NCBI GenBank assembly: GCA_028281925.1
Contig: JANQIX010000110.1
Location: forward strand, 46,271-70,270
Direction: 5' to 3'
From: Alphaproteobacteria bacterium
Lineage (GTDB): Bacteria > Pseudomonadota > Alphaproteobacteria > DSM-16000 > Inquilinaceae
Length of the DNA stretch: 24,000 bases
This document shows positions 413 through 21,700 of the stretch, in pieces. The position numbers were made by a program, and so were the translations under genes. Within the stretch, counting starts at the first letter, position 1. Each line of letters starts with the position of its first letter. The notes beneath the pieces are model-generated. The model had not been told where the DNA came from and ran no database searches. It saw only the letters and a program-made list of their open reading frames with translations.

Positions 413-542
413 GGCCGCAGCCTACACCCCAGCGGACGCCGGCGGGGCACCGCAATGCAAAAGCCCGGTCGGACCGGTTCAAAAAGCCGTATCCCGGCCC
501 TATAGTGCGCGGCCTTTTGCCCCGCAAACGTTCGAAGCGCCC

Positions 543-2060: not shown

Positions 2061-2074
2061 CACCGCGGGTGGCG

Positions 2075-3620: not shown

Positions 3621-3772
3621 GGGCTCCTCCATCGGCGCGGAAACGAAGACGCTTGTCAAAATGGAAGCATAGACCCTCGCCGCCGCAGAGCGCCAGCAAA
3701 AGCGGTGCTGCGGCGGTCGTGGCAGATCGTCCGTTCCGCCGGATGAAACGCAGGTGGCGTCGCCTGACGAAG

Positions 3773-4405
3773 CTACTGGCTGGCCCAGATGATGCGCGCG
3801 ATCCAGTCGATATCCGCGCGTCGCAGAGAACGGTCCTCGAAGGCGGGATTGAGAGACTTCAGATCGACCAAATTGGCGGTCATGCGCGCCAGTTCCTTTG
3901 CCATCACCTCGCCGCCGCGCGTCTTCACCACGACGCGATCGCCGCGCCGGATATCGGCCGCCGGCGACACGATGATGCGATCGCCGTCCCGGAACACCGG
4001 CTGCATGCTGTCGCCGCTGATCTCAAGGGCATAGGCGTGGGGATCGGAGAGATCGGGAAACTCCACCTCGTCCCACCCGCCCCCGGCCGGAAAACCGGCG
4101 TCGTCGAAGTAACCCTCCGATCCTGCCTGTGCATAGCCGATGACCGGCAGCCGCTGCGGACCAATCCTTCGCGGCGCATCGTCCAGCAACGTTATGAATT
4201 GGTCGATCGGCGTCGATGTTGCGTCCAGGATCTTCGCAAGGCTCTCGGTCGACGGCCACCGCGTGCGGCCTTCCGCCGTCTGCCGCTTCGACGGGTTGAA
4301 GGTCGTCGGGTCAAGCCCGGCCCGGCGGGCCAGCCCCGACGGAGACAGGCCTTGCGACCGAGCCAATCGGTCGATCGCGCGCCAGATATTTGCGTGTCTG
4401 AACAT
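3773..4405 (-). CDS. LexA/phage-repressor-like transcriptional regulator (N-terminal HTH, C-terminal S24 peptidase domain)
   Basis: 210 aa. The N-terminus, IWRAIDRLARSQGLSPSGLARRAGLDPTTF, looks like an HTH. The C-terminus has the S24 Ser motif EISGDSMQPVFRDGDRIIV and a downstream Lys (VVVKTRGGEVMAKEL). Confidence 0.8.
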   Translation of the reverse strand: MFRHANIWRAIDRLARSQGLSPSGLARRAGLDPTTFNPSKRQTAEGRTRWPSTESLAKILDATSTPIDQFITLLDDAPRRIGPQRLPVIGYAQAGSEGYFDDAGFPAGGGWDEVEFPDLSDPHAYALEISGDSMQPVFRDGDRIIVSPAADIRRGDRVVVKTRGGEVMAKELARMTANLVDLKSLNPAFEDRSLRRADIDWIARIIWASQ

Positions 4406-4470
4406 GGGAACATCGTCTCATACATAAGGCCGCGGCGTCCCTGCCAAAATGCGGCCGCCAAGTCCCGCGA

Positions 4471-5436
4471 CTATCGCAACCTCAATGCCGAGAAGACGCG
4501 GTCGACAGACAGGTCGGCGAGCTGTGCCTGCTGAATCAACCCGACATCGTGACCGACCGGCGCATGGCGCGCGGGGTCGGAAGACGCGGAAAACAGGACC
4601 AGCGAGGGACAGCCGACCAATGCCGCAAGATGCATCGGCCCGGTGTCATTGCCGACCGCCCCGTCAGCCCGCCGGGCAAGTGCCGCCAGTTGATCGAGCG
4701 ACGTCCGCCCCGTTAGATCGACGACCGAGGCGCTGGCCGCGGCGATCTCTCGATTGGCCTCCGCCTCCGCACGGGTCCCGACCAGGACCGACGCCAGGCC
4801 TCGGTCGGCCAACCTGTTGGCAAGTCTGGCAAACCGGCTGTGCGGCCAGCGCTTCTCCGGCCGGCCGGGTGAACTGCCCGTCACCAGAAGAACGAACCGA
4901 TCCGGCAGCTGCGGATCGTCGAGCGTGGCGTCCATCCAGTCGAGATCAGGCCGGGTTACGCCGTGGACGCCGGCTGCGGCGAGCTGTTCGGCCATGCGGT
5001 CGAGCGCATGAATTTGACGCCGCCGCGGATTGGCGTGGGGGTACGAGCAACCGCGGGCCGTTCCCGACCATTCCGGCCGGCGTCCCGGGCCCATCATCCG
5101 GTAGTAGAGGGCCGTGCGGTCGTTGGTCTGCAGGTCGTAGACACGGCTAAATCGGGCGGAACGCAGCCGTGCGCGCAGGTCCAGCACAGCTCCGATGTGC
5201 CATAGGCGAGGCCGGCCATCCGTCCACACCTCGGCCACTTGCCCACTTCTGCGGAACAGATCGCCGAAGGGCGGCGTGGTCAGAACAGTGATCGCCGCCT
5301 GCGGGTGATGGCGGCGGATCGCCGCCAGCGGACCGAAGGACACGATCACATCGCCCAGTGCGCCGAGCTTGATGACCAGGATGCGCTCGTCAGCGGCCTC
5401 CGCCGCGGCTGGATCCGGCACGATCTCGGCCACCAT
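4471..5436 (-). CDS. Glycosyltransferase family 9 (LPS heptosyltransferase-like)
   Basis: 321 aa. Begins with ILVIKLGALGDVIVSFGPLAAIRRHHPQAAITVLT (typical GT9 N-terminus). The C-terminal part has DLTGRTSLDQLAALARRADGAVGNDTGPMHLAA (GT9 ADP-heptose-binding region). Confidence 0.85.
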   Translation of the reverse strand: MVAEIVPDPAAAEAADERILVIKLGALGDVIVSFGPLAAIRRHHPQAAITVLTTPPFGDLFRRSGQVAEVWTDGRPRLWHIGAVLDLRARLRSARFSRVYDLQTNDRTALYYRMMGPGRRPEWSGTARGCSYPHANPRRRQIHALDRMAEQLAAAGVHGVTRPDLDWMDATLDDPQLPDRFVLLVTGSSPGRPEKRWPHSRFARLANRLADRGLASVLVGTRAEAEANREIAAASASVVDLTGRTSLDQLAALARRADGAVGNDTGPMHLAALVGCPSLVLFSASSDPARHAPVGHDVGLIQQAQLADLSVDRVFSALRLR

Positions 5437-5517
5437 CGGCCCTGGTTGCTCCGGCGTTTCGGATGGGATGGTCAGCGAACCTGCGGCCGCGTGCTTAGCG
5501 AGCGGCTCAGGGAGTCG

Positions 5518-6672
5518 TCAAGCGCTACGCCGCTCCGCCCGATCGGCCAGCAGTTCGTCATAGACATCGATAGTCGCATCGGTCATCTGGCGCCGGTCGA
5601 AATGCGTGCGCACGAAGGCGATCGCCCGGTCGGCCATCGCCGATCGTTCGTCGGGTTCCAGGGACAGGGCATTGGCCAGCGCTTCCGTCAGTGTGGCCGG
5701 GTCGCCCGGTGCCGTCAGCCAGCCGGTGCTGCCATGCTGCAAGTTCTCCGAAGGGGCTCCGAGATCGCTGGCGATCACGGGCCGTCCCATGGCCTGTGCC
5801 TCGACGATGACACGCCCGAACCCCTCCGGATCGGTCGAAGCATGCACGACGACGTCCGACAGCATGTAAGCCGCCGGCATGTCGCTGCACTCTTCGTCGA
5901 TGCGCACCACGCTTCCCAGGCCGAGATCGACCGCCCGGCGCTCCAGCTCCCGCCGGTAGGCCGTCCGCCCCTGGGCCGATCCGACCAGCACACAGCGGAT
6001 ATCCTGCCGACCGAGCCGCGCCAGCGCTTCGAGCAGGACCATCTGCCCCTTCCAGCGCGTCAGCCGCGCCGGCATCAGAATGACGGGCACGCCGTCGGGC
6101 AGGCTCCAGCGTCGCGAGAGCTGAACCACGCGTTCCGCGCTGACCATATCCGGTGCGAATCGATCGAAATCAATGCCACGCGGAATGACACGGACCTTAC
6201 TGTCGTCGACACTGTAGTTGGAAACGATGTAGCGGCGGACGTGGTCAGAGATGGCGATCATGCGGTCGCCGCGTGCCATTACAGAATTGTACCAGCGCTT
6301 GAGAGGCGACGTGATGCCGTACGGCGCGTGGAAAGTTGTGACAAAAGGCGTTCCGGTATCACGGCAGGCGAGGAACGCGCTCCACGCCGGGGCGCGGCTG
6401 CGTGCGTGCACAATGTCGACGCCGCGCGCGTGGACGATTTCCGCAAGATGGCGGGCGTTGCGGCGGATGGCCCAGGGTCGCTTGGTGGCCAGCGGCAGGG
6501 TGATGTGCTCCACCTCAGCCCGAATCAGTTCGCGAACCATGGCGCCACCGGACGATGCCACCAGAGCCGTGCCGCCCGCCTCGGCGACGGCCAGCGCAAC
6601 ATCCACGCAGCCGCGTTCCGCACCCCCCGTTACCAGTGACGGCAGCACCTGCAGGATGACGGGACCGGACAT
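5518..6672 (-). CDS. Glycosyltransferase family 4 (GT-B, LPS/core or EPS glycosyltransferase)
   Basis: ORF 5518..6783. The start is uncertain, with candidates at 6672 (MSGPVILQVLPSLVTGGAERG), 6714 and 6783. The 6783 start would overlap the divergent hydrolase gene and its strong RBS. Motifs: GGAERGCVDVA near the N-terminus and the C-terminal EGFGRVIVEAQAMGRPVIASDLGA (the E-x7-E region of GT4). Confidence 0.8.
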   Translation of the reverse strand: MSGPVILQVLPSLVTGGAERGCVDVALAVAEAGGTALVASSGGAMVRELIRAEVEHITLPLATKRPWAIRRNARHLAEIVHARGVDIVHARSRAPAWSAFLACRDTGTPFVTTFHAPYGITSPLKRWYNSVMARGDRMIAISDHVRRYIVSNYSVDDSKVRVIPRGIDFDRFAPDMVSAERVVQLSRRWSLPDGVPVILMPARLTRWKGQMVLLEALARLGRQDIRCVLVGSAQGRTAYRRELERRAVDLGLGSVVRIDEECSDMPAAYMLSDVVVHASTDPEGFGRVIVEAQAMGRPVIASDLGAPSENLQHGSTGWLTAPGDPATLTEALANALSLEPDERSAMADRAIAFVRTHFDRRQMTDATIDVYDELLADRAERRSA

Positions 6673-6744
6673 CTCGCCATGATCGATGGAAGCGACAGCT
6701 GGGCCGGTCGTCATTGAGTCTATGTCGGCGAGAAGGAGGGAAGG

Positions 6745-7623
6745 ATGCAGTCCTTCAGCGACGATAGCGCCCCACCGGAGCAAACGCTAGAGCGACCCGG
6801 GGGTATTGCGCTTGCCTACCATCGCGTGCAAGCGGACAACGCCGCGTCCGGTCCGGGGGTGGTGTTCCTGACGGGCTACCTGTCGGACATGAGCGGATCC
6901 AAAGCCCTGCACCTGGAAGGGCATTGCCGGGACCGCGGCCAGGCCTTCGTGCGCTTCGACTATCGCGGCCACGGCCGTTCGGGCGGCCGCTTTGAAGACG
7001 GCACGATCGGGGCCTGGCGCGACGACGCGATCGCCGTTCTAGACGCGCTTACGGAAGGCCCGCAGATCCTGGTGGGGTCGTCCATGGGCGGCTGGATCGC
7101 CGTGCTGGCGGCTCTGGCGCGGCCCGACCGGGTGGCCGGGCTGATTACGGTCGCAGCGGCGGTCGACATGACGGCCGACATGATCTGGCCACAGCTCGAT
7201 GGTCGCGATCGGGCGACGCTGCGCCGCGATGGCCGTCTGGAGCGCCCCTCGCCCTATGGCGACGCCCCGTTCGTCGTCACCTGGGCGCTGATGGAGGAGG
7301 CGGAGCGCCATGTGTTGCTGCGCGCGCCCATCGAGATCGCCTGCTCGGCCCGGCTGCTGCACGGCATGCGCGACCCGGACGTACCTTGGCGCCAGAGTGT
7401 GCGGCTGATGGAACGCCTCGCCGCGGAGGATGTGCGGCTGCTGCTGATCAAAGATGGCGGCCACCGGCTTTCGGACCCGGAACACTTGGCCTTGCTGACC
7501 GGAGCGGTGGACGAACTGAGCGCGATCGCAACGCCCCAGAGCGCGTCAATGGAGCAGCCTTCGCCGGCGGCGGCGGCGGAACAGGAGCAGGATGAGAAGG
7601 CCGGGCACGGCGAAGACAACTGA
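6745..7623 (+). CDS. Alpha/beta-fold hydrolase
   Basis: ATG at 6745 preceded by AAGGAGG (6733-6739). Carries VVFLTGYLSDMSG, RFDYRGHGRSGG and the nucleophile elbow GSSMGGWIA, with a late GGHRLSDP (catalytic His region). The last ~26 codons overlap the convergent membrane-protein ORF. Confidence 0.8.
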   Translation: MQSFSDDSAPPEQTLERPGGIALAYHRVQADNAASGPGVVFLTGYLSDMSGSKALHLEGHCRDRGQAFVRFDYRGHGRSGGRFEDGTIGAWRDDAIAVLDALTEGPQILVGSSMGGWIAVLAALARPDRVAGLITVAAAVDMTADMIWPQLDGRDRATLRRDGRLERPSPYGDAPFVVTWALMEEAERHVLLRAPIEIACSARLLHGMRDPDVPWRQSVRLMERLAAEDVRLLLIKDGGHRLSDPEHLALLTGAVDELSAIATPQSASMEQPSPAAAAEQEQDEKAGHGEDN

Positions 7624-7896
7624 GGCCGGCGCGAGCACGACATACAAGAGGCCTTGATCCCACACCGCCGGATGCAGATAGCGCTGGACGATGGCCTGGA
7701 CGAAGTTCGGGGATTCGGGGCTGAGCATGTACCACAGCTCACCGAACGTGATGGGCACCTCGCCGGAGGTGATGGAGAACACGCCGGGGCTGACCACAGT
7801 TGTCTCAACCGCCGTGGCCCATATCCACACATCCCGTCCGAGGGTCGCCAACGCTAACAGAAGCAACGCCCAGCCGATGGCGCGAACGACGAACAT
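7546..7896 (-). CDS. Small hypothetical membrane protein (two predicted TM segments, poly-Arg tail)
   Basis: Part of ORF 7546..7950, whose listed start is a TTG. The first ATG is at 7896 (MFVVRAIGWALLLLALATLG...). The second hydrophobic stretch is LLYVVLAPASVVFAVPGLLILLLF, followed by RRRRRRR. No family recognised. Confidence 0.45.
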   Translation of the reverse strand: MFVVRAIGWALLLLALATLGRDVWIWATAVETTVVSPGVFSITSGEVPITFGELWYMLSPESPNFVQAIVQRYLHPAVWDQGLLYVVLAPASVVFAVPGLLILLLFRRRRRRRLLH

Positions 7897-8043
7897 GATG
7901 CGGGGGGGCTCCGAGAGCAGGGCGACCGGATCTCCATTAGACACAACCAAGCTGGAGAATGCAAAGCTCCGCCCCGCAAATCGGCCGGATCGTGCGCATT
8001 GCAGGCGACGGATCGGCCCGCTAAGTATAGGCCGTACCTAAGC

Positions 8044-8134
8044 GGAGGGGTGGCCGAGCGGTTGAAGGCGCACGCCTGGAAAGTGTGTATACGTTAATCG
8101 CGTATCGTGGGTTCGAATCCCATCCCCTCCGCCA
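8044..8134 (+). tRNA. tRNA-Ser (anticodon GGA), class II with long variable arm, CCA encoded
   Basis: Acceptor stem GGAGGGG/CCCCTCC, discriminator G and encoded CCA (8132-8134). Anticodon stem CACGC/GTGTG with loop CTGGAAA, giving anticodon GGA. Long variable arm ATACG-TTAATCG-CGTAT. T arm GTGGG-TTCGAAT-CCCAT. Confidence 0.93.
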
Positions 8135-8712
8135 CTATGCCACGGTTTCTCTGGCGTTTTTGACTGTTCGCACATCTATCCCATACATTTTCCCTACACA
8201 TTGGACCGGGATTGAACTTGCATGCATGCCACATGCGACCACCTAGAGGTCGGTGTTCTATTAATGAGTGATTGCGCACTTCTTTAAGCTTGCACCCTTG
8301 CCAGTTTGAATCCTTAGGCTTAGCGCCACTCGATCGTGCGCAAAGTGCGCGGGGAGTAGCAGAAAGTCTAATATGTGCATATGCACTACAAAACGGCTTC
8401 CCTAGCGATTTTCACTGTGCCCCAATTACCCAAAATGAGTGACCATTCACTTTTCTGTCCTCCAATAGGCAGGTCAGTGACCGGTGAAGCCCAGCTTTGC
8501 GATCGCGAGATCCAGTGCCCCTATCTCACGGCATGGCCCAGCCAAATCGAGGTCAGCCCCACTATCTTGATTAGACGAAAACAAGAATGACAGCGCAGTT
8601 AGGCCTCGAAGCATACTATGGATGCTTGACGACGCCCAAGAAGCAGGTTGCAGTCAATCCCATCGACTGGTACCAAATCAACACGCGGTCAACAGAATTA
8701 CAGTGATGTGAT

Positions 8713-10113
8713 ATGCGCCGTCTGATCCTTCCCGCTCTGCTCTCATCGGCAGTTGCAATACCGCTTCCGAACACAGCGTGGGCGACGAGTGCGGACGAGA
8801 TCAGACGCCTCGAACAGCAGTTGCTGGAGCAGCGCGAGTTGCTCGAAGCCCAAAGGGCAGTTATTGAGGCCCAACAGGAGCAGCTTGATAGCCAGTTGCG
8901 CCAGCTGCAAGACCTGCAGACCAGCCTCTCAGCTGAGCCTCTGTCGGACGACGAGCTCGGCGAGGCTCGCGGCGGAGTGGGCCAGATGGTCTCGGCTCCG
9001 CTCATCTTGAGTTTTCCGTCGCTGGATGGTCAGAGTTTCCAGCCGTCGACGATCACGGCCAGCGTCTTCCCGGCTGCGTTCCCGGAGACCGTGACGGCCG
9101 ACCAGCTGCTGAGCCAGCAGACACCAGGGCAAGCACCGACGACGGAACCAGGCGGCCAAGGCACACCTCCTGGGGACGTCGACTCGGAAGACACCCCGCC
9201 AAGCGTGGAGCTGTTCCCCGAACGCGGCGGCGCACTTCTGCCACAGGGAACTTTAGTGTTTGAGCCTTCTGTTGAATACAACCTTTCGAATGTTAACCGA
9301 GTCGAGGTCGCGGGCTTCAGTGTCCTGCCTGCGATTCTTGTCGGTGAGTTCGCGGTGGAGTCGGTGGAGCGCGAAAACATTACCCCCGCCGTCTCTCTGC
9401 GCTACGGCATCACTGACCGTCTGGATGCCCAGGTTCGTATCCCCTACGTGTTTCGCAGCGAAGACTCCAGCCGACGACCAATTGGCGTCGGCGCTGATGA
9501 GGCCGAGCAGTTCAACACCACCGGCAACGGGCTCGGCGATATTGAGTTCGCGACCAACTATCAGATCAATCGAGGATTGGACGATTGGCCCTTCTTCATT
9601 GCCAATCTTCGCGTGCGCGTGCCAACCGGGCGGGACCCGTTCGAGATTGAGCGGGACGAAGACGGAAATGAATTGGAGCTCGCAACCGGCACAGGGTTTT
9701 TTGGTATACAGCCGAGCTTCACGGTGCTCTATCCGAATGATCCGGCCGTGTTATTCGCGAACCTCGGTTACACCTGGAACTTGGAGCGGGATGTCGGCGA
9801 CGAGTTCGGAGTCATCGATCCCGGCGATATTGTCAACCTCAGCGGTGGCGTCGGCATCGGGCTGAACGAACGCACATCCATTACCCTTGGCTATGATCAC
9901 CAGGTCGTGGGACGCACGAGCCAGGATGGCCAGATCGTCGATGGATCGCGGGTCCTCAACATCGGGCGGCTTCTGTTCGGCGCCTCGTTTCGCGTTTCTG
10001 ACAGTGTCGGCGTCAATCTGACGGTCGCCCCCGGCGTGACTGAAGACGCGCCCGACCTGACCGCGACCTTGCGCGTGCCGATCACCTTCCAAGATCTTTT
10101 CGGAAGCGATTAG
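8713..10113 (+). CDS. Outer-membrane beta-barrel protein with an N-terminal coiled coil (FapF-like architecture)
   Basis: 466 aa. Signal peptide MRRLILPALLSSAVAIPLPNTAWA|TS. Heptad-like coiled coil at about aa 27-72 (EIRRLEQQLLEQRELLEAQRAVIEAQQEQLDSQLRQLQDLQ). LSDDELGEARGG at aa 77-88. A P/T/Q/G-rich linker runs to about aa 175, followed by ~290 aa of alternating-polarity beta-strand sequence (e.g. VSLRYGITDRLDAQVRIPYVF, GLGDIEFATNYQI, FFIANLRVRVPTG, SITLGYDHQV, LTATLRVPITF). Confidence 0.8.
   Translation: MRRLILPALLSSAVAIPLPNTAWATSADEIRRLEQQLLEQRELLEAQRAVIEAQQEQLDSQLRQLQDLQTSLSAEPLSDDELGEARGGVGQMVSAPLILSFPSLDGQSFQPSTITASVFPAAFPETVTADQLLSQQTPGQAPTTEPGGQGTPPGDVDSEDTPPSVELFPERGGALLPQGTLVFEPSVEYNLSNVNRVEVAGFSVLPAILVGEFAVESVERENITPAVSLRYGITDRLDAQVRIPYVFRSEDSSRRPIGVGADEAEQFNTTGNGLGDIEFATNYQINRGLDDWPFFIANLRVRVPTGRDPFEIERDEDGNELELATGTGFFGIQPSFTVLYPNDPAVLFANLGYTWNLERDVGDEFGVIDPGDIVNLSGGVGIGLNERTSITLGYDHQVVGRTSQDGQIVDGSRVLNIGRLLFGASFRVSDSVGVNLTVAPGVTEDAPDLTATLRVPITFQDLFGSD
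8941..8976 (+). other. Double-glycine (C39-type) processing motif LSDDELGEARGG inside the barrel protein
   Basis: The codons CTG TCG GAC GAC GAG CTC GGC GAG GCT CGC GGC GGA were read directly. The block fits LSxxELxxIxGG at positions -12, -11, -8, -7, -2 and -1. Confidence 0.55.
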
Positions 10114-10401
10114 GCATCAACCACGCAACCGCGGGTGATCGATTGTTCTTTTGGGGGACTAGAGGCGCATCCTCAGGCTACAGGCAACCGATGTGCCTAC
10201 AAGCCTTGAACACGTCAGATGGATTAGGCCAGGTTTGATTAAGCCAGGGACCGATCAAGCCGCTGGGAAGCGAACGATACTTCCGCTCCGGCTGGCACCA
10301 CATTCCTTCAGGCGCATGCCTGTTTAGGCCGAACGACTTCGCACCACGACTTCGCACCGTGCTGACAACTCGGCGATTCCCTCCCAACGTGAACCTGCTC
10401 T

Positions 10402-10926
10402 TCAGCGGTCCCTGACTCTGGGCAGGGACAGAACCTCAGTGGTGTCGGCTGTCGTCGATGCGGATCGCGCGGGCCTCTCCGCCAAGACGACTCGGTGATT
10501 ACCATCGCGCCAGTGGTCATCGAAGCCACTCGCCGGGGACATTGCCTCGAGTGCCGTGATCGGCGCGCCGAGTGGCAACACGGCATGCTCCGGGATCACC
10601 TCTCTGCCGGAGGCTGTCGCCACCGCCACTCCCTGATATCCGGCCGCCGCGCCTGACCCGGCAGCGGTTGCAATGACGGCATCGTCCTCATTTTCGATGC
10701 AGATATCACCCCAAGTCACCGCCCGCCACATCGCGCAGTCTTCATCGGCGACGGCGGAGAGCGCGTGGTCCATGATCATCTTGTCTGTGGCGACCAGCAC
10801 GGCCCCATCGATCGCATAGCCGGCAACAATCATGGGCAATGGCAGGGCACAGGCTGTGAGGGCCGCCGCCCCGAAGACAGCGGTGGCGGCAGGCAGATAG
10901 GGTCGTCTCTTCACTTGGGCCTCCAT
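10402..10926 (-). CDS. Hypothetical lipoprotein (last gene of the repeat-protein operon)
   Basis: Part of ORF 10402..11004; the start is taken at ATG 10926 (MEAQVKRRPYLPAATAVFGAAALTAC|ALPLP). A lipobox-like L-T-A-C follows a hydrophobic h-region. No family recognised. Same strand as the 182-aa gene, 67 bp downstream of it. Confidence 0.55.
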   Translation of the reverse strand: MEAQVKRRPYLPAATAVFGAAALTACALPLPMIVAGYAIDGAVLVATDKMIMDHALSAVADEDCAMWRAVTWGDICIENEDDAVIATAAGSGAAAGYQGVAVATASGREVIPEHAVLPLGAPITALEAMSPASGFDDHWRDGNHRVVLAERPARSASTTADTTEVLSLPRVRDR

Positions 10927-10993
10927 GTTCCTGGAGGTCCGACGATGCTCTGCCGGCCTCCAGTTTGTTATCGTGATGCCATGTGAGTTGCCA

Positions 10994-11542
10994 TCACAGG
11001 CCAAGTAAGCCGGCTTCGATCAGTGCGTTGGCGAGGTTGTTTGCTTGGATGCTCGACATGTCGAGATCGAGCGTCAACTCGATGCCGGTGTTCTGCTGTA
11101 TGATGATGTTGTCGAGATTGTTTTGGATAACGGAGAACAAGCCGGACCCGGCGATATCGCCAAGCATGTTGCTGTCGGGGGTGCCCCCCTGCAGGCTGAC
11201 GATGATGCTGCTGTTGGTTTGCTCGATTGCGGTGGTCACCTGACTGCCGAGGACATTGTTCACCTCCGGATCCCCGACCAGCACCCCATTCTCCAGAACC
11301 GCCTGGAAAGTGAAGCTGCTGAGCTCGCTGCCGTCCGCGCCGGCAACCAACCCGGTCATGTCGATCCCGAAGCTCACGAAACCGGCGCTGGTCAGGAAGC
11401 CACCGCGCAGATCCGCCAGCTCTTCGTTCGAGAGCCGCCGCTGCGACCACAAATCGTCTTCGGCCATCGCCGGAGCCAGCTCTGCCAGCAACGGCGTTGC
11501 CATGACCCAGAGCGCTAACGCCAAAGTGCTTTTGCCACGCAT
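10994..11542 (-). CDS. Secreted accessory protein with a GG-leader motif and degenerate IQNN-type repeats
   Basis: ORF 10994..11551 starts on a GTG. The ATG at 11542 has GGGAGG 10 nt upstream. Signal peptide MRGKSTLALALWVMATPLLAELAPAMA|ED, then LSNEELADLRGG. The C-terminal half has AIEQTNSSIIVSLQGG and FSVIQNNLDNIIIQQNT (nt 11087-11137). Confidence 0.7.
   Translation of the reverse strand: MRGKSTLALALWVMATPLLAELAPAMAEDDLWSQRRLSNEELADLRGGFLTSAGFVSFGIDMTGLVAGADGSELSSFTFQAVLENGVLVGDPEVNNVLGSQVTTAIEQTNSSIIVSLQGGTPDSNMLGDIAGSGLFSVIQNNLDNIIIQQNTGIELTLDLDMSSIQANNLANALIEAGLLGL
11399..11434 (-). other. Double-glycine processing motif LSNEELADLRGG
   Basis: The reverse complement reads CTC TCG AAC GAA GAG CTG GCG GAT CTG CGC GGT GGC. 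This fits the LSxxELxxIxGG consensus, including Leu at -4. Confidence 0.55.
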
Positions 11543-11560
11543 GGCTTCCACGCCTCCCGG

Positions 11561-12283
11561 TTAGAATGTGAATTCGTTCAATCCCGGCATCAGCAGCGTT
11601 ATGTCCGACAGGTTCTGTACGGTCAGCGCCGAGCCCAGCGGGGCCAGAGCGCGAATGCGCCAATCTGCTGCCACGTTGAACCGCTGCTGCCCGCTCTCCA
11701 TTGCATTCGTCACGACGAAGAGGATGCCGTTCCACATTGCCTCAAACTGATCTCTTGGGATGATCTTCATGCCGAAGGCCGGATCACCCACCAGGACCTC
11801 GTTTTCGGTCACGCCCTTGATCACCACAAAGTGCAAGTAGCCGTTCAGGTTTATCAGCGTGACCCCGGGGATGCCAACTTCGACCAACTGATCCAGCGAC
11901 GCCTCGAACCCATCGGACTCGAGCCCGATCGTTGCAAGGTAGGTCTTCATGTCGAGCATGGAAAAGCCGCGGGTCCGGATGGCTTCCTGATCGCCGTTCT
12001 CCCACATGTGCTCGAACACGGCCTGCTCGGTCGTCGGAACGCCGTAATGGTAGGTGAGCAAGGTTGCGACCGAGGCCGAGCCGCAGCTGAAGTCGTACTG
12101 CTGCGGCACGACGGCGTTGTACCGCGCCTCTCGGATACTGGTGACCGTCGTGTTGAACGAGAAACCGCCGACGATCGTGGTGACGTCGGCGGCGGTCGCC
12201 TTGTGCGGTCCGGCCGCCGCGGCAACGAGGGCGACGGCGGCCAGCCTGCACAGCCCCAGCCTTGTCTTTGACAGTGTGATCAT
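11561..12283 (-). CDS. Stand-alone C39-family cysteine peptidase with a Sec signal peptide (predicted periplasmic, FapD-like)
   Basis: 240 aa. Signal peptide MITLSKTRLGLCRLAAVALVAAAAGPHKATA|AD. C39 signature VVPQQYDFSCGSASVATLLTYHYG has Gln 6 residues before Cys67 (codon 12083-12085). LHFVVIKGVTENEVLVGDPAFG contains His151 and Asp167, 16 residues apart. Its ATG overlaps the TGA of the upstream 115-aa gene (ATGA). Confidence 0.88.
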   Translation of the reverse strand: MITLSKTRLGLCRLAAVALVAAAAGPHKATAADVTTIVGGFSFNTTVTSIREARYNAVVPQQYDFSCGSASVATLLTYHYGVPTTEQAVFEHMWENGDQEAIRTRGFSMLDMKTYLATIGLESDGFEASLDQLVEVGIPGVTLINLNGYLHFVVIKGVTENEVLVGDPAFGMKIIPRDQFEAMWNGILFVVTNAMESGQQRFNVAADWRIRALAPLGSALTVQNLSDITLLMPGLNEFTF

Positions 12284-12627
12284 TGCACGATAACGCTCAG
12301 CATTGTGTTCACCTGGATGATCGAGTTGTTGCCGTTGTTCTGGATCACCGTGAACGCGCCGGCCGCATTCTGAAACGCATCTGCGGCGATGGAATTGCTG
12401 GCATTGAACGGGCCCGTGATGTTTGAGGTCACGTTGCTGATCTCCGCCGACAGTGCGGCAAAGTCGGCATCGAGACCTTGCAGCGAGCCGCCGCGTGCCT
12501 CCGCCAGTTCTTCCGTAGAGATCGGGTTCCCGCCAAGAAGCCGGCTGACCTCTTCTTGGGCCTTAGCCGTATGTCCCGTGCCTGCGATGGCTAACGCCGC
12601 GACACAGAGAATTATACCCTTGGTCAT
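12280..12627 (-). CDS. Small secreted protein: signal peptide + GG-leader motif + a single QNNG-family repeat (candidate nucleator/cap)
   Basis: Part of ORF 12280..12648. The ATG at 12627 is preferred, with GGGAGG 5 nt upstream (complement of 12633-12638). Signal peptide MTKGIILCVAALAIAGTGHTAKA|QE, then ISTEELAEARGG. The mature ~68 aa end in DAFQNAAGAFTVIQNNGNNSIIQVNTMLSVIVQ. Confidence 0.75.
   Translation of the reverse strand: MTKGIILCVAALAIAGTGHTAKAQEEVSRLLGGNPISTEELAEARGGSLQGLDADFAALSAEISNVTSNITGPFNASNSIAADAFQNAAGAFTVIQNNGNNSIIQVNTMLSVIVQ
12487..12522 (-). other. Double-glycine processing motif ISTEELAEARGG
   Basis: Codons were checked one by one on the reverse strand (ATC TCT ACG GAA GAA CTG GCG GAG GCA CGC GGC GGC). 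Confidence 0.55.
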
Positions 12628-12668
12628 CAAAGCCTCCCGAAACAGCATACTTAACCGAAGAGCGTGAA

Positions 12669-12696
12669 CCGGGGGTCGCTGTCACTCGACCCCCGG
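12669..12696 (-). terminator. GC-rich 10-bp-stem hairpin between the giant gene and the downstream accessory genes (possible attenuator or mRNA-stabilising stem-loop)
   Basis: CCGGGGGTCG (12669-12678), loop CTGTCACT, CGACCCCCGG (12687-12696). It lies 37 nt downstream of the giant gene's TAA (12733-12735). On the minus-strand transcript no clean U-tract follows (TTCACGCTCTTCGG), so it is not a canonical intrinsic terminator. Confidence 0.35.
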
Positions 12697-12732
12697 CCCC
12701 GTTTTGGCTCCCTACAGAGCCTCCCGTTACTC

Positions 12733-15700
12733 TTACGGCCGCGTGAAGCTTGCCGTAACCGAGATGGACGAGCTGATCACGTTGCCCGAACCGTTGTTCT
12801 GGGTGACCGACACAACCCCAGCCGCTCCGTTGAACGAGTCGGTGATCGTGTTGTTGAGCCCAGTGGAGCCGGCCGGGATGACCGTATCGACCGTGACGTT
12901 GGAGGTCGCACCGGCCAGTGTCGCGGTCGACACCGCAGTGCCAAACCCGACGTCACCGCTCGGCGCACCGCCAGAGCCCACCTGCTCCGCACCGACGCTG
13001 ACCGCCGTTCCCAGCACATTGGCATCGCCGTTGTTCTGGGTCACGGTCGCCACGCCCTGGAAGCTCTCGAACGAGTCGCTGATCGTGTTGTCGGGGCCGA
13101 CAGCACCCAGCTGCTGATAGATCTCGATCGGAGCCCCAGGCGCCCCAACGGTACCGGTCACGTCAGACGAAACCGTGCTGGAACCTGCCACGTCCGCGTT
13201 GTCACCCAGCGTGGCCGATACGCCGATGGCCGTTGTCGCCACATTGCCGTTCCCGTTGTTCTGGAACACGGCGAAGATCCCCTCGGCACCATCGAACGAG
13301 GCGTCGATGAAGTTCGACCGATTGCCGAAGAACTGCCGGTCACCCGGCGCACCGAACACCAGACCGCTCACATCGCCGCCGGCCTCGACCACCGAGGCGA
13401 CCGTGTCGATATCGTCTGCATCGACCAGGGCCACCACGCCAATCGAAGTGCCGATGACGTTGCCGGTACCGTTGTTCTGCTGAACCGAGACCACACCGCT
13501 CGCGCCGTCGAAGGAGTCGGCGACGATGTCGTTGTCTCGGAGGTTGCTCTCCAAGATCGCGCCATCGTCAACCTCGCTGACCGTGCCGAAGGCGCGGATC
13601 AACGATTGCGTGGAGCTCTCTGCGGCAGGAGTGGCGCCAGCCTGGCCCGTGCGAACGTCGGCCGACACGGCGATGGCGGAGAACATGGCGTTACCGTCGC
13701 CATTGTTCTGCTGGACCGTCAGCGTGCCGGTATACGAGTCGAACGAGTCAGTGATCGTATTCAACCGCGGGCTTTCCGTATCGACGAAGGTGATGATGTC
13801 TTCGATGTCCACGGACATGTCGACCGACTGGGTGACGTTGTTCGCGGTCGCACCGGGCCCGCTGCCGAACACCGCGGTACCGGAGAAGATGAAGTTTCCG
13901 CCACCGTTGTTCTGCTGAGCCGTGACGATGCCCGAAGCGTCGTCGAACGCCCCACCGACGAGGAGGTTGGTACGAGCCCCGTCCGGCGTGGCGGCGGACC
14001 CGAACGTGAGCCCCGACAGCGTCGGCGGGACACCGTCCAGGCTGATCGTCTGATCAACCGTCAACGTCTCTTCGTCGTCCGCATCGCCGACCAACGCCGT
14101 TGCCGCCGCCAGAACGTTGCCGTCACCATTGTTCTGCTGAATGGTGGCGACACCTGAGTACCCGACGAATGCCGAGGTCAGGTCGTTCAGACGCAGGCTG
14201 TTGTCGGAGAGCACCGTGAGATCGCTGACCTGGTTCGTACCGGACGCGGCATCGATCGTCTGGTCGACGTTCTCCGGGCCGTTACCCACATAGGCCAGCA
14301 CCGCCACGTCTTCGATCATCACGTTGGCGTCGCCGTTGTTCTGCTGAACATCGACCACACCCGCGAAGCCGTCAAACGCGCCCGGTTCGACCCTATTGGT
14401 GCGCACGTCATCGGCTGCCGACACGAGCGCGAACGAGACCACTGTTTCAACGAATGTGATCTCTTGGGCCGCGTCACTGAGGAACCCGGTCGATCCCACA
14501 ATGGCGTTGTTGGCCGTCATCACGTTCACATCGCCGTTGTTCTGCTGAACCGTGGCAATGCCGCCGGTGCCCGGGCCCGTGAAGGCGCCGCCACCGATGG
14601 TGTTCGTCCGCGTTCCGCCAGCGCTGATCAGGTTCAGATCGAAGGTCAGGTTCCCGGCGACCGTTCCGGCCGACCCGATGGTCTGGGTCACCGTGCCAGT
14701 CGGGCCGAGCAGCAGGCCATCAGCCGACCCCAGCACCGCATTGTTGATCTGCATGGCGTTGAGGTTGCCGTTGTTCTGCTGAACATTGGCGATCCCCGCC
14801 GAGCCGGAGAAGGCCGTGCCGCCCACCAGGTTGGTGCGTGTCTCACCGCTAATCAGGATGTCGATATCGGCATCCAGCGTCGCGATGATATCCGCATCCG
14901 ACGTGATCGTCTGATCGACCGGCAGCCCCGCCGCCTGCAGCAGGACACCACCAGCCAAGCCGACCACGGCGCTGTTCGCCCCAATCGCGTTCAGGTTGCC
15001 GTTGTTCTGCTGAACCGTGGCAATCCCGTTCGAGCCGGAGAAGGCACCGCCGTCGATCGTGTTGGTCGCAACCTCTGTTCCCAGCGTCAGGAACTCGAGA
15101 TCCACTGTCGCATCCAACAGGTGCAGCGTGTCGGACGACACGACCTGATCGACTTCACCGACCGCACTGAGGGCGAACCCGGCCGCGCCGAGCACCGCGG
15201 TGTTGGCGGTGATCGAGTTCAGGTCACCATTGTTCTGCTGAACCGTGGCGACGCCGTCCGAGCCCGAGAACGCGCTGCCAGTGATCGTGTTGGTATCCGT
15301 ATCACCGAGCAGCAAGGAGATATCGATCCCCGCCTCGAACACGTGGGCAGCGCTGGAGCTCACGCTCTGATCCACGCTTCCCGCGCCGATGGCGGCAAGA
15401 CCTGACACACCGACGATCGCATTGTTGATCGTCATGGCATTGATGTTGCCGTTGTTCTGCTGAGCATTCACGACACCGGCGGACCCTGCGAAGGCCATGC
15501 TGTCGATCAGGTTCTCCCGATCGCCGCCGGACAAGATGTTGATGTCGAACGCCGCGTTGAGCGCCAGCAAGTCGGCCGAGGTGATGCTCTGGACCACCGT
15601 TCCCGTCGCGTTGAACGAAAGCCCAACTGCACCGACAACCGCGTTGTTGATGGCGAGTGCATTGATGTCGCCGTTGTTCTGCTGAACGCTGGTCAGACCC

Positions 15701-18700
15701 GCTGCACCTTCAAACGCTTCGTCGCTGATCAGGTTGTCGCGGCTGCTGTCCGCGATGCCCAGATCGATGGCCAAGTCGAGTGCCAGTGTGGCTTCCGACG
15801 TGACCGTCTGCGTGATGCTATCGGTCAGCCTGAAGTCGAAGCCACCGACCCCGATGATCGCATTGTTGATACCGAGACCGTTCACGTTGCCGTTGTTCTG
15901 CTGAACGCTGGTCACGCCTTCGACACCCTCGAACGCGTCGTCGGTGATCGTGTTGGCACGCGCACCAAGGACATTGAGGTCGGCATCGAGAGCCAGGTTG
16001 AAGATGATGTCGGTGCTGGAGCCGGCCACCTGCGTGACGTCGCCGAACGGCCCCAGTTGGGCTCCGCCGGCCACGCCGACGACCGCACTGTTGATGTCCA
16101 GCGCGTTCACGTCGCCGTTGTTCTGCTGCACGCTGGTCATGCCGGAGATGCCGTTGAACGACCCCGCGTCGATCGTATTCGTGCGGAAGCCGAGGATGTC
16201 GATCGCACCGTTGGCGGTGAGGTCGACTTCCGACATGGCCGTCTGGGTCACATCCGCGCCGATCGCCAGCGCCCCGTCGGTCAGGCCGACCACGGCGTTG
16301 TTGATGCCGAGCGAATTGACGTTGCCATTGTTCTGCTGCGCGGCGATCAGGCCCGACGTCGCGAGGAACGCCGCATCCGTGATCGAATTCGTCCGTGCGC
16401 CGCCCAGGACGTCAGCATCTACCACGAAGCTGCCATCGATGCTGACGGTCGACGTGGCCTCTTGATCCACGAAACCGACTGCACTGAGCGAGAACCCGGC
16501 CACACCCACGACGGCGTTGTTGATGCCCATCGCATTGATGTCGCCGTTATTCTGCTGGGCGCTGACGATGCCGCTCGCGAAGGCGAACGCCCCCGCATCG
16601 ATATCGTTGTCCCGCACGCCGCCGAAGAACAGGGTGACATCTGCGGCCGTGTTGTCCAGCAGGCTGACATCAGACGTGGCGTCCTGGAACACGAAGCCGG
16701 TCGCGCTGAGCGCGATGCCTGTGGTCCCGGAAACCGCATTGTTGATGCTGAGCGCATTCACATCGCCGTTGTTCTGTTGAACGCTCAGCAGACCGGCTGC
16801 AGCGACGTTGGCGATGTCGCTGATGTCGTTGGTGCGCGCACCACCACCGAAGATGCCCAGATCGATGGCCGTGTTGCTGTCCAGCTCTACGAGCGAGCTG
16901 GCCGACTGGACGATAGCGAAGGTCGCGCTCGCCGACAGCCCAACCGTTCCCATCACTGCGTTGTTGATGTTCAGCGCATTGATGTTGCCGTTGTTCTGCT
17001 GGGCATTGATGACGCCAGCCGCCGTCGCGAAGGCAGCGCCATCGATCGTGTTGTCCCGGTCACCGCCGCCCAGGGCGCTGACGTCAAGCGCGCCACCCAG
17101 GGTCAGGTCCGTGTCGGAACTCGCCGTCTGGAACGCCACGCCAGTCAGGCTGGCAGAGGCGCCGACACCGCCGATCACCGCATTGTTGGCGCTGATGGCA
17201 TTCAGGTCGCCATTGTTCTGCTGAACATTGACAACTCCAGCGAAGCCAGCGAAGGCGCCGTCCGTCAGTGTGTTCGTGCGGTCACCGCCAAACACGCTGC
17301 CGTCCACGGCCAGCGTGAAGACAGTGTCAACTGACGAGGTGGCGTCCTGATCCACAAGGCCATTGGCCGTGAGGGTCAGGCCGTTGGCGCCGACGACCGC
17401 ATTGTTAACGTCCATCGAGTTCAGGTTGCCGTTGTTCTGCTGAACGCTGGCGATCCCGCTGCCGCCTGCGAAGGCAGCGTCGTCGATGGTGTTGGTCCGC
17501 GTACCCTGGATGTCGATCGCAGCCGCGATGGCGTTGACGACAGTCGAGGATGCATCTTGCGTGATGAAGCCGAGCTGAGCCAGAGCGCCGGCCGACACGC
17601 CAACCACCGCATTGTTGGTGCTGATGGCATTCAGGTCGCCGTTGTTCTGCTGAACGTTGACGATGCCGTTTGCGCCGGTGAAGGCAAGGTCGGTGAGGGT
17701 ATTCGTCCGATCACCGCCCAGGATCTCCAGATCCACCGCCACGTTGAAGGCGAGCCCGCTGTCTGAGTCGGCAGTCTGGATCACCGGACCACTGGCGCTG
17801 GCGCCGAAGCCCGCAACGCCAACGACGGCACTGTTCACGCCCATGACGTTCACGTTGCCGTTGTTCTGCTGGACAGTGGTGATCCCGTTGGCCACCAGGA
17901 AGGCGCCAGCGTTGACCACGTTCGCGCGATCACCACCCCCGATCTGCACATCCAATGCTGCATCGAACAGCAAGAAGGCATCCGATTCGGCCACCTGCGT
18001 AACGATGCCCGTTCCCGTCAGGCCGAGGCCCGCTGTTCCGAACACCGCTGTGTTGGCAGAGATCGAGTTCAGATCGCCGTTGTTCTGCTGAACATTGACG
18101 ATGCCGTCCGACGCGATCGAGGCGATGCCCGTGATCGTGTTCAGGCGATCGCCACCACCCAGCAGCCCGACATCGATTGCCGTGTCGCCCAGGAGCGTTG
18201 CCGTGGAGGTCGCCGACTGATCCAACGTCCCGGAGAGGCTTACGCCGGCGCCGGACGCACCGACGATGGCGTTGTTGATGCCCATGGCGTTCAGGTCGCC
18301 GTTGTTCTGCTGAACGTTGACGACACCATCCACCAGCGCAAAGGCAGCACCACCGACTACGTTGCTGCGTGCGCTGCCGCCGAGGAAGTCGAAGTCGACG
18401 GTCGTGCTGAGAGCGATATCCTGATCCGAGCCGGCGGTCTGCGTCGTCGCCCCAGCAGCACTGATCGAGATACCCACGGCACCCATAACCGCGTTATTGA
18501 TGCCGAGTGCGTTCAGGTCGCCGTTGTTCTGCTGAACGTTGGCGATACCGTCGAAGACCGAGAACGCTGTACCGGTGATCACATTGTCTCGGCCACCGCC
18601 GCCTAGGAGATCCAGGTTCAGCGTCGCACCCAGGGCCAGATCGACATCGGAAGTCGCGCTCTGGTCGACGGTCGAATTCAGGCCCAGGTTGATCCCGATC

Positions 18701-21700
18701 GCGCCGACCACGGCGGAGTTGGCGTCGATCGAGTTCAGATCACCGTTGTTCTGCTGCACGCTTGCGAGGCCGGCTGCTCCGGAGAAGGCCGATCCGCTGA
18801 TGGAATTGTCGCGGGCGCCGAACCCAAGAGCATCGACATCGATCCCCGCATTCAAAGCGGCATCGACGGTCGAGCTAGCGGACTGATCGATAGCGCCGAG
18901 CACAGCCACGTTGATACCGCCGCTGGAGCCAACGACGGCATTGTTGATGTCCATGCTGTTGAGGCTGCCGTTGTTCTGCTGGATAGCCGCGATGCCGTTG
19001 GCACCGGCAAACGCCGCACCGTCGATCGTGTTCTCCCGATCGCCGCCCAGATCGATAGCCAAGTTGATCAGGAAGTCGACGTCGGAAGCCGCCACCTGGC
19101 TTATGCCACCGATCGCACCCGTGAGGCTTGGCGCCGTGGCCCCGAGCACCGCGTTGTTGATCTGCAGCGCATTCAGGTCGCCGTTGTTCTGCTGGATGTT
19201 CGCGATACCTGCGGCGCCGGTGAAGGCACCCGTGATCGTGTTGCTGCGGTCACTCAGCAGGTCAAGCGTCGCGTTGACGGTCAAGAGAGCGGTCGAAGTG
19301 GCCGACTGCACGACCGGCACACCTGACAGCACGATGGCCGGGCCGATCGAGCCCACCACGCCGTTGTTGGTCTCAAGCGTGTTCAGCGTGCCGTTGTTCT
19401 GCTCGATATTGGCGATGCCCGTGGCACCAGCGAACCCACCGGGAATCGTGTTGGTGCGCGAACCGAACAGATCGGCCGTGGCGCCGAAGGCCACGATCGC
19501 CGGGCTGTTCACATCCTGCGTGACGCTGGTCGCGACACCAAGCGCACCGACCACGGCGTTGTTGATCTGCAGCGAGTTGAGGTCACCATTGTTCTGCTGA
19601 ACGTTGATGATCCCGCTCGCGCCATCAAACGCACCGGCGGCGATCGTGTTCGTCCGCGTCGTGGCAATGCCGATCTCCAGATTGCCAGCCAGCGTCGTCA
19701 GCTCAATCGTCGAACTCGGGGTCTGCGTGATCGCACCGGTCGCACCGGTCACGCCCACCACCGCGCTGTTGATGTCCATCGCATTCAGGCTGCCATTGTT
19801 CTGTTGAACGCTGGCCACGCCCGTGAAGCCGTCGAAGACGGGATCGGCGATGAAGTTGTCGCGGGTACCCGCGATGTCGACGGCCAAGTTGCCCAGGATC
19901 GACACGGTCGTGCCGACGTCCTGATCGATGGCACCGGTGGAGCTAGCCACACCGACGATCGCAGTGCCGATTGAGACAATGTTGGCGTCACCGTTGTTCT
20001 GCTGGACGTTCGCCACGCCCGCGGCCCCATTGAAGCCGTCTTCCAGCAGGTTGGACCGGACGTCGCTCGGGTCGACCGCGACCGAGCTCAGGATATCCGC
20101 CGTCTTGACGATGTCCTGATCGATGGCGCCAGTCGCGCCGACGATGCCGACAATGGCATTGCCGATGACGATGGCATTACCGCTGCCATTGTTCTGCTGA
20201 ACGTTGAGAACGCCGGTCGCACCGTTGAAGGACCCACCGGCCAGGCCGATGTTGTTGTCCAGCGTGGAGGAACCGACGCGGATCACCTCAACATCGTCGA
20301 CTTCGGCATCCAGCGTGACGGCCTGCGTGATGCTGCCGGAACCGCCGAGGCCCGCGCCGAGAGCGGCCGCATCGCCGGCGATCGCGCTGGCGACCTGGAT
20401 GGCATTCGCATGGCCGTTGTTCTGCTGAACGGTGACCACGCCGGCGGCATCGGTGAACGCTTGGTCGATGTCGTTGCTGCGGTCGGCGCCGCTGCCCGAA
20501 ACATCGATGTCGACGATGAAGCCATCGAGCGTGGCGAAGGCATTCGTGGTCTGCGAGATCGCCCCGCCCACTGACGCCGTCGCACCGATGACCGCATTGG
20601 CCACGTCCATCGCGTTGGCGTGACCGTTGTTCTGCTGCACGGTCAGAACACCCGACGCGTCGCGGAACGACCGTTCGATCAGGTTGATTGCCGTCGGGAA
20701 GCCGATATCGTCAACATCGGTGCTGCCCAGAACGGTGGAGAAACTGCCAGCCGTCTGATCGATAGACCCGATCGTGCCGCCAGGTGACGCCAGCCCCAGA
20801 ACCGCATTGGCGTTGGAGATGGCATTGCCATCGCCGTTGTTCTGCTGGGCCGTAAGGACACCGCTGAAGCGGTCAGCGGAGTTGATGGTCAGGTTCCGAT
20901 AGTCGGTTGCATTGGAATCCGCGCTGGTCAGGAGGATCGTCGAAGCCGACGTCGCGTCCTGTGTGACCGCGCCGTCCACGCCGCCGGTGATACCCGCAAT
21001 GGCGTTGGCGATCCCCATCGCATTGCCATCGCCGTTATTCTGCTGGACAGCCGCGAGACCGACTGCGTCGTCGAACGCCCGGCGGATCACATTGTTTCGA
21101 TCCAGCGCAAACGCAAAGCTGCCGGGCTGCGTGTTGGTCGTGTTCAGGGCTATGGTGCCGCCGGTCAGGGCCGACTGCGTAACGGCGTCCGTGTCTTCCG
21201 GCGAACCCAGAAGGACGGCCGTCCCGCCGACGAGACCGGTAACTGCATTGGCAATGCCCATGGCGTTGCCGCTGCCGTTGTTCTGCTGAACCGCCATGAT
21301 GCCGGCGGTGGAATCGAAGGAGTCGCGGATCCTGTTCCGGCGATCGGTACCTTGATCAACCGTGTCAACGAGGACCGAAAGGCCGACGGTCGAAGCGGTG
21401 TTGGTGATGGCGCCGACATCCGCGATGGCTGCAACGATGCCGTGCGCTGCCGTTGCAACGCCCATCGCATTGATGTCGCCATTGTTCTGCTGCACATGGA
21501 TGATGCCGGCAGCGCCATTGTAGGAGCTGTCTTGGACGAAGTTCTGCCGCTCCCGCGTGGCGTCGGAGCCGTCGCCGATTGCGGTCGCACTGCCAAAGGC
21601 GACGATATCGGTGACCGCAGCCACGGTCTCGATGTCAGCGCCGTCGGGTGCCAGGTCGCCATTCACCGCGATGGCGCTACCGAGCACGTTCCCGTCGCCA

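Follow-up and report, generated by a model that had tools for sequence, protein, structure and literature searches.

We examined a 24,000-nt stretch of contig JANQIX010000110.1 (positions 46,271 to 70,270), from an alphaproteobacterium of the Inquilinaceae. This whole stretch is called the window, and coordinates are counted from its first letter unless a locus name is given. A minus-strand operon in it runs, in order, through genes for a giant repeat protein, a small secreted protein of 115 amino acids (aa; s115), a C39 peptidase, a second small secreted protein of 182 aa (s185) and a putative lipoprotein, and a gene for a FapF-like outer-membrane protein converges on it. The subject here is the pair of small proteins: what they share with the giant, and which secretion system they belong to. 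The main features are these.

12733-21924, minus strand: gene of the giant repeat protein, 3063 aa, secreted, with 42 Fap-type repeats
12280-12627, minus strand: gene of s115, the 115-aa protein (open reading frame, ORF, and translation)
12559-12627, minus strand: Sec signal of s115, residues 1-23
12487-12558, minus strand: double-glycine leader of s115, QEEVSRLLGGNPISTEELAEARGG, residues 24-47 (family alignments)
12283-12486, minus strand: predicted mature product of s115, 68 aa
12283-12402, minus strand: Fap-type unit at the C-terminal end of s115, residues ~76-115
11561-12283, minus strand: gene of the FapD-like C39 peptidase, 240 aa (Pfam, NCBIfam)
10994-11542, minus strand: gene of s185, the 182-aa protein, a FapE homologue by its sequence matches (NCBIfam FapE, BLASTP, family alignment)
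Residues 1-27 of s185, minus strand: Sec signal
11399-11461, minus strand: double-glycine leader of s185, EDDLWSQRRLSNEELADLRGG, residues 28-48, the mature part beginning at F49
11081-11155, minus strand: Fap-type unit of s185, SGLFSVIQNNLDNIIIQQNTGIELT, with a ~28-aa tail behind it
8713-10113, plus strand: gene of the FapF-like outer-membrane beta-barrel, 466 aa, convergent with the minus-strand operon

The genes are closely packed. The stop of s115 and the start of the C39 gene overlap (ATGA), s185 starts 19 nt past the C39 stop, and the FapF-like gene is <1 kb away. Since a GGGAGG ribosome-binding site precedes the ATG of s115 at 12627, the 115-aa start is supported. Both small genes, put forward in a preliminary description of this DNA, are real; the peptides it drew from them lie where it had placed them (FTVIQNNGNNSIIQVNT of s115 at 12304-12354, FSVIQNNLDNIIIQQNT of s185 at 11087-11137), and its count of 42 repeats in the giant is correct.

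Repeat unit, leaders and partner proteins

The 42 repeats of the giant have a period of ~73 aa and the core RxNxIxxxAFxGAxGxxxVQQNNGDxNAxxxNNAVxG; the last unit stops 4 residues short of the C-terminus. The giant has no double-glycine leader and matches no curated family in Pfam or NCBIfam. A hidden Markov model (HMM) built from the 42 repeat cores picks out residues 77-108 of s115 with 16-18 bits, a score reached by none of 5000 composition-preserving shuffles of its mature part (maximum 14.3). Alignment by hhalign of the s115 family profile (22 members) to the 42 giant repeats gave a probability of 95.3% and an E-value of 2.2e-8 over 33 columns, so the earlier claim that s115 bears the giant's repeat holds. 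In the other direction, an HMM of the unit made from s115 proteins of other species gives all 42 giant repeats a positive score (5-27 bits), and with the full unit model from s115 proteins the terminal repeats of the giant score only slightly above the internal ones.

As a reference we used the canonical fap operon found in two Halomonadaceae loci, confirmed by the NCBIfam models of FapB, C, D, E and F. Its FapB has three repeats and no double-glycine leader. The giant-repeat HMM matches the third FapB repeat with ~14 bits, reached by none of 1000 shuffles, and does not match the FapC of the reference operon.

The unit of s185 is found by the s115-family unit HMM (18.3 bits, independent E 5e-8), the profiles of the s185 family (A5) and the s115 family (A3) align by hhalign at 97.7% and E 1.4e-12, and the two proteins themselves align end to end (BLASTP E 1e-5). 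Because its direct match to the giant repeats is not significant, s185 joins the giant-repeat family only through the s115 family; the membership asserted for it earlier stands by that route and fails in the direct comparison. On these profile matches, the unit of s115 and s185 is homologous to the 42 repeats of the giant and to the repeats of FapB.

Each small protein has one such unit. A second, weaker copy in s185, AIEQTNSSIIVSLQGG, which the preliminary description had included, scores no better than shuffles and was rejected. The alignment of the s185 family has another motif upstream of the unit, L(V/I)QNGxGN, of which s185 of the window has a degenerate form, and it shows that the ~28-aa tail behind the unit is conserved. 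The size asymmetry once given as 1-2 repeats against 42 therefore keeps its larger figure and becomes one unit in each small protein; FapB, by comparison with the single unit of s115, has three repeats.

An AlphaFold2 model of s115 has a helix at residues 38-44 and is otherwise disordered. A fold comparison is impossible because of this disorder, and the disorder predicted for the mature part is as expected for an amyloid-type subunit. For the giant we modelled the last four repeats with AlphaFold2, using an alignment made from its own non-overlapping four-repeat blocks. This model is all-beta (predicted template modelling score, pTM, 0.71), with the repeat cores at a predicted local distance difference test score (pLDDT) of 82-89 and folded as strand, NNG turn, strand. 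Its top Foldseek match in the PDB is the FapC fibril 9u4u (E 2e-3), the remainder being beta-helices, and profile searches of PDB sequences returned nothing relevant. The model is consistent with a stacked beta-arch architecture that a single-unit protein could extend by one rung.

The small proteins have a common layout: Sec signal, double-glycine leader, disordered region and one Fap-type unit at or near the C-terminus. The double-glycine motif behind the Sec signal is ISTEELAEARGG in s115 and LSNEELADLRGG in s185. Leaders of class II bacteriocins have the consensus LSxxELxxIxGG, and both leaders here fit it, with the expected residues at -1, -2, -4, -7, -8 and -12: they have a hydrophobic residue at -12, S at -11, E at -8, L at -7, A or L at -4 and GG at -2/-1. 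The site hardly varies in the FapE-like family (G at -2 in 60/66 members and at -1 in 56/66, M or L at -4 in 52/66, F or Y at +1 in 54/66), while GG is present in 38 of the 56 motif-bearing members of the s115 family. Pairing leaders by locus gives a higher similarity than pairing them across loci (a value as high as the observed one came up in 48 of 10000 permutations), and the window pair is especially similar. Among curated models, Pfam Lactococcin gives the s115 leader an E-value of ~0.04-0.048 (14.2 bits, cut-off 23.1), and the NCBIfam leader and bacteriocin models do not match the small proteins. Judged by their leaders, s115 and s185 are likely substrates of the adjacent C39 peptidase. 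These double-glycine leaders beside a C39 peptidase, which the preliminary description had left undeveloped, are the strongest mechanistic clue at the locus.

The leader (V/I-S-x-x-E-L-A-x-A-R-G; 12487-12522 and 11399-11434) and the first half of the unit (I-S-G-G-A-F-A-N-A-S-G) are similarly spaced: a hydrophobic residue, S, three residues, F/L, three residues, x-G. The leader might have been derived from half a unit.

The peptidase (Pfam Peptidase_C39, 9.4e-19) has its own signal peptide. It is closest to FapD (NCBIfam 7.1e-47, 159.5 bits, equivalog cut-off 330) and also matches FilB (6.8e-33), below the FapD score. Residues Q61, C67, H151 and D167 are invariant in 26 homologues, and the enzyme is predicted to be catalytically competent. 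The barrel protein matches NCBIfam FapF (2.1e-40, 138.8 bits, cut-off 700), Pfam Phenol_MetA_deg (3.8e-7) and, at residues 25-81, coiled-coil families weakly; a match to FilC (3.5e-10) is below that to FapF.

For s185, the NCBIfam FapE model (NF058559) scores 21.6 bits with E 1e-4, aligning residues 14-79 to profile positions 5-68. A BLASTP match to the FapE of the canonical fap operon (E 3e-5) covers the leader and the region after it, the C-terminal unit being present in addition, and the gene has the position of fapE, directly downstream of the fapD-type gene and adjoining fapF. By these sequence matches s185 is a FapE homologue. s115 itself matches neither FapB (NCBIfam NF058557) nor Curlin_rpt, and the FapB model finds one of its 22 family members weakly (E 0.003). 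No Pfam or NCBIfam family covers the s115 family.

The four-gene cassette, its distribution and its surroundings

Word-indexed homologue searches returned merely 5 and 2 close relatives. An exhaustive profile search with the s115 family yielded 446 cluster representatives, multi-repeat proteins counted in: many are proteins of 105-125 aa matched over their full length, and others are multi-repeat proteins matching the C-terminal part of the profile 5-16 times. Homologues of the C39 peptidase number >4000. s115 belongs to a widespread, unannotated sister family. The sub-signature that had been taken as private to the two small proteins is the consensus of this family, FTVIQNSGNNVxIQxxTIxNV (also given as FTVIQN(S/N)GNNVxIQxxT).

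Cassette counts were made on 80 related loci, kept from at least 585 loci confirmed in a genome scan. The loci span Alpha-, Beta-, Gamma- and Deltaproteobacteria, Nitrospira, Acidobacteria, Bdellovibrionota and one Chloroflexota assembly. An s115-type gene lies just upstream of the C39 gene in 69 of the 80, a FapE-like gene just downstream of it in 63, and FapF within 7 kb in 66; all four are present in 48, contig ends shortening some loci. The order s115, C39, FapE-like, FapF is a conserved cassette. A multi-repeat protein was found in 6/80 related loci. Since s115-type genes are so much more common than that, the small proteins are not satellites of the giant; they make up the conserved core, and in the giant the same unit has been expanded in a lineage-specific way.

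Where a multi-repeat protein is present, the closest fit to the small-protein signature tends to fall on its last unit, which ranks 2/42 in the window and 1/9, 1/20, 2/10, 2/6, 3/7 and 5/11 elsewhere. The trend is modest and concerns mainly the C-terminal half of the unit (Fisher's method over the seven ranks, p ~0.03, with no correction for phylogeny). In addition, 'QNN' replaces 'QN(S/T)' in s115 at 3/7 loci having a QQNNG multi-repeat protein versus 0/53 others, and in s185-type proteins at 4/7 versus 1/40 (Fisher p ~0.001 per family, an association confounded by phylogeny). The 'QNN' association lends indirect backing to a co-assembly of the small proteins with the giant.

Some gamma- and betaproteobacterial cassettes have, upstream of the s115-type gene, genes for proteins of 290-440 aa with a signal peptide, a long low-complexity region of S, N, D, G and T, and a single Fap-type unit at the extreme C-terminus. 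They are found at the following places in the related loci.

L018, 190-1404: low-complexity one-unit gene
L037, 110-1300: low-complexity one-unit gene
L038, 7986-9314: low-complexity one-unit gene
L060, 8436-9356: low-complexity one-unit gene
L072, 7599-8489: low-complexity one-unit gene
L020, 7663-8538: low-complexity one-unit gene

Such low-complexity proteins with a terminal unit suggest that the system accepts any cargo ending in a unit.

Two Halomonadaceae loci (L061 and L081) have a window-type cassette and a canonical fapABCDEF-like operon a few kb apart (~9.4-12.5 and 14.5-19.9 kb); because both occur in the same genomes, the two are paralogous systems. The canonical operon in these loci adjoins sigma-54-type activator-like genes. 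Proteins in the FapA position (L061, 14556-15086; L081, 15007-15402) carry a leader-like motif (I/L)DxxxLxxVRGRY, as does the FapE of their own operon (MRGRF, IRGRY). HMM support for this is weak, at 3.4 bits, a score that 65 of 2000 shuffles also attain. Possibly FapA corresponds, in degenerate form, to the s115-type protein.

Two further features belong to the window operon.

10402-10914, minus strand: gene of a putative lipoprotein, 170 aa, lipobox LTAC, called as a gene, downstream of s185
12666-12699, minus strand: GC-rich stem-loop with a 13-bp stem, inside the 105-nt spacer between the giant and s115 genes

The lipoprotein gene is probably in the same operon as s185. Its product has no family match in Pfam or NCBIfam, and among the 81 loci a counterpart is present in the window genome alone and absent from the other 80. 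The stem-loop has a perfect 13-bp stem and an 8-nt loop, and the 113-nt stretch around it (12628-12740) folds at -53 kcal/mol (z-score -3.8; equalled by 0/200 shuffles). A promoter and terminator scan of 10100-12800 found nothing; it missed the stem-loop because this has no T-run. The stem-loop could set the ratio of giant to downstream expression, or stabilise the transcript. The left flank holds housekeeping genes (lysS, aminotransferase) and has a higher G+C content, 0.65-0.68 in window positions 1-8000 versus 0.55-0.63 across the Fap-like locus (8001-12000); the drop fits either a different origin or N/Q-rich coding content. Upstream of the giant gene, a 309-aa ORF (22512-23441, minus strand) resembles, in its C-terminal region, segments of peptidoglycan-binding type (SleB and HxsA models, E 1e-7).

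Possible roles of the small proteins

Because the neighbours of s115 match FapD, FapE and FapF, and the small proteins are linked to canonical FapE and FapB, the locus reads as a Fap-type system. With moderate confidence we take it to be a divergent Fap-type secretion and assembly system, of which s115 and s185 would be the conserved leader-bearing subunits.

Several observations weigh against this. None of the matches to the models of FapD, FapE and FapF comes near its equivalog cut-off; for s185 that cut-off is 250 bits, and the match is confined to the N-terminal region. Compared directly with the giant repeats, s185 scores 1.7 bits with the HMM (equalled by 266/5000 shuffles) and E 0.07 with hhalign, neither being significant. 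No curated double-glycine leader model reaches its threshold, the glycine at -1 is variable in the s115 family (also R, M, K, T), and the canonical FapE of Halomonadaceae has RGR, not RGG. The FapC fibril match of the giant model is weak (probability 0.38, TM-score 0.15-0.23). The co-variation tests (last unit, 'QNN', leader pairs) carry no phylogeny correction, and all loci with a multi-repeat protein are alphaproteobacterial. Serving such a protein cannot be the ancestral role of the small proteins, because most cassettes are without one. Finally, the functional steps set out next are all steps that we infer, from the unit homology, the FapD-, FapE- and FapF-like context, the cassette, the leaders and the peptidase active site.

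All components would reach the periplasm by Sec. There the FapD-like C39 peptidase would cut the 21-24-residue leaders after GG, giving a 68-aa s115 product and a ~134-aa s185 product with N-terminal Phe, and leader removal would be coupled to passage through the FapF-like pore; the leaderless giant would stay uncleaved. Once at the cell surface, each small protein would provide with its unit one beta-arch rung, and this rung would stack, in register, on the Asn/Gln ladder of the beta-solenoid-like giant repeats. The part of anchor close to the cell, or of secretion primer, would fall to FapE-like s185, and s115 would be a terminal subunit or a template of one rung (nucleator). That the small proteins nucleate or anchor is plausible; homology favours s185, through the role proposed for FapE, as anchor or secretion primer, and s115 as one-rung template.

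FapD has been described as a C39 peptidase of the periplasm for which no substrate had been established; FapC secretion depends on its active-site cysteine. Mass spectrometry missed the first ~70 residues of FapE, whose C-terminal part is, like the repeats, rich in N and Q (PMC5557850, PMC6173800). Rouse et al. (2017) state that the Pseudomonas Fap proteins lack canonical C39 sites (PMC5557850). In a 2025 review FapD is 'thought to process' FapE, and anchoring of the fibril is the function suggested for FapE (PMC12822426). Homologues of fapD and fapF lying together in other phyla received a passing mention in 2018. For Fap-type systems of alphaproteobacteria, and for double-glycine leaders in any Fap system, our literature search returned the two known papers, of 2016 and 2017, and no description.

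A broader proposal, offered tentatively, is that the four-gene cassette would be an old and widespread export machine for amyloid-type units, in which periplasmic removal of double-glycine leaders gates export through the pore. The small proteins would be its original substrates, and canonical Fap and the 42-repeat giant later elaborations. In the window the small proteins would also serve as one-rung template and anchor, and the near-invariant RGG-F/Y would be the cleavage site of FapD.

The preliminary description had cast the small proteins as dedicated minor subunits of the giant that, like CsgB or FapB, nucleate or cap its polymerisation. We find this doubtful. s115 and the giant do have the unit in common, 'QNN' is common to the small proteins and the giant in this lineage, and the small genes lie directly downstream of the giant gene. 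Yet the small genes are in most cassettes and a multi-repeat protein in 6/80, s185 is homologous to FapE and not to FapB, the FapB model passes over s115 and touches its family once, weakly, and a single unit in each protein contrasts with the three repeats of FapB and with the multi-repeat CsgB.

It is unlikely that the C-terminal unit is mainly an export signal recognised by FapF, with the small proteins as secretion primers or plug-openers and the likeness among all these proteins that of a shared targeting element. A unit of the same flavour does end s115, the low-complexity proteins and, as the last repeat, the multi-repeat proteins, and FapE and FapD are needed for FapC secretion in Pseudomonas (PMC5557850). 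However, the unit of s185 is not terminal, having the conserved ~28-aa tail after it, and homology to the unit extends to the giant's internal repeats; targeting and co-assembly are, moreover, mutually compatible roles.

Since most cassettes are without a multi-repeat protein, s115 may ancestrally have been the fibre subunit itself. That it is so here, its 68-aa product polymerising as the main fibre subunit with s185 as anchor and the giant as extra cargo or adhesin passing the same pore, is rather improbable. In most related loci s115 and s185 are the sole unit-bearing proteins beside C39 and FapF, and the low-complexity one-unit proteins upstream in some gamma- and betaproteobacterial loci are in keeping with the idea; but the first gene of the operon here encodes a 42-repeat protein, and a stable fibre from a one-unit peptide is supposition.

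A double-glycine leader beside a C39 peptidase is a hallmark of class II bacteriocins and microcins, and the small proteins could on that ground be taken for such peptides, matured by the C39 peptidase whose gene adjoins theirs and unrelated to fibre assembly. The weak Lactococcin match on the s115 leader would agree. We consider this very improbable, as no ABC (ATP-binding cassette) transporter or immunity gene was recognised among the window genes examined, the mature parts persist across phyla and share homology with structural repeats, and the partner proteins are FapE- and FapF-like. That the likeness is a by-product of N/Q/G-rich composition, or that the small ORFs are not genes, has next to no probability left: the region is GC-rich with many spurious overlapping ORFs and the units are Asn/Gln-rich, but the s115 score reached by 0/5000 shuffles, the profile-profile E-values of 2e-8 and 1e-12 and the conserved synteny of orthologues across phyla already refute it.

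The question of the FapD substrate, standing since 2017, gains a concrete candidate site, the near-invariant RGG-F/Y of FapE-like proteins in the window locus and its relatives, and the s115 family becomes a second, unannotated set of predicted substrates of FapD-type peptidases. The comparison changes the view of Fap as well: several phyla have its conserved core, a peptidase, a pore and two single-unit proteins with leaders, to which multi-repeat fibre proteins, from 3 repeats in FapC to 42 here, have been attached in particular lineages. For annotation, many small 'hypothetical' proteins beside C39 peptidase genes could be named.

Comparison with known systems

The preliminary description compared the small proteins with CsgB and FapB. 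Fap is indeed the right system, as the FapD, FapE and FapF matches indicate, whereas the equation of the small proteins with these nucleators does not hold, s185 being a FapE homologue and s115 a single unit. As with FapB and CsgB, the operon of the major subunit also encodes a smaller protein whose repeat is homologous to the repeats of that subunit. The smaller protein here differs in consisting of one unit and a leader instead of a shortened multi-repeat copy, and in being far more widely distributed than the giant. CsgB is a multi-repeat protein of the curli system (CsgG, CsgE, CsgF), and that system is absent at the window locus.

Class II bacteriocins, microcins and competence peptides, the double-glycine/C39 peptides, resemble the small proteins in the leader motif, the predicted helical leader and an adjoining C39 peptidase with a Cys/His/Asp active site. 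In the window, by contrast, the leader follows a Sec signal and is not at the extreme N-terminus, the peptidase is a free, signal-bearing protein of 240 aa and not the N-terminal domain of an ABC exporter, and the products, instead of being toxins or pheromones, are units of a structural repeat. The putative pilus system of FilB and FilC is matched by the peptidase and the barrel too, with scores below those of FapD and FapF, and no Fil model matches the small proteins.

FapB and FapC of Pseudomonas are not processed. The window locus differs from Pseudomonas Fap in its main repeat protein (42 repeats and 3063 aa versus 3 repeats in FapC), in that no FapA or FapB gene was found at the locus, in the extra single-unit leader protein s115, which takes the position of fapC, and in a fapF-like gene that is convergent with the operon, with matches below the equivalog cut-offs. 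Its leaders are also near the canonical double-glycine motif, whereas the Pseudomonas Fap proteins are without canonical C39 sites (PMC5557850). The two have in common a periplasmic C39 peptidase, a FapF-type pore with an N-terminal coiled coil, a FapE-like gene directly 3' of the peptidase gene with the conserved FapE N-terminal region, and N/Q-rich repeats homologous to those of FapB; in the mechanism proposed here the giant, like Pseudomonas FapB and FapC, would remain uncleaved.

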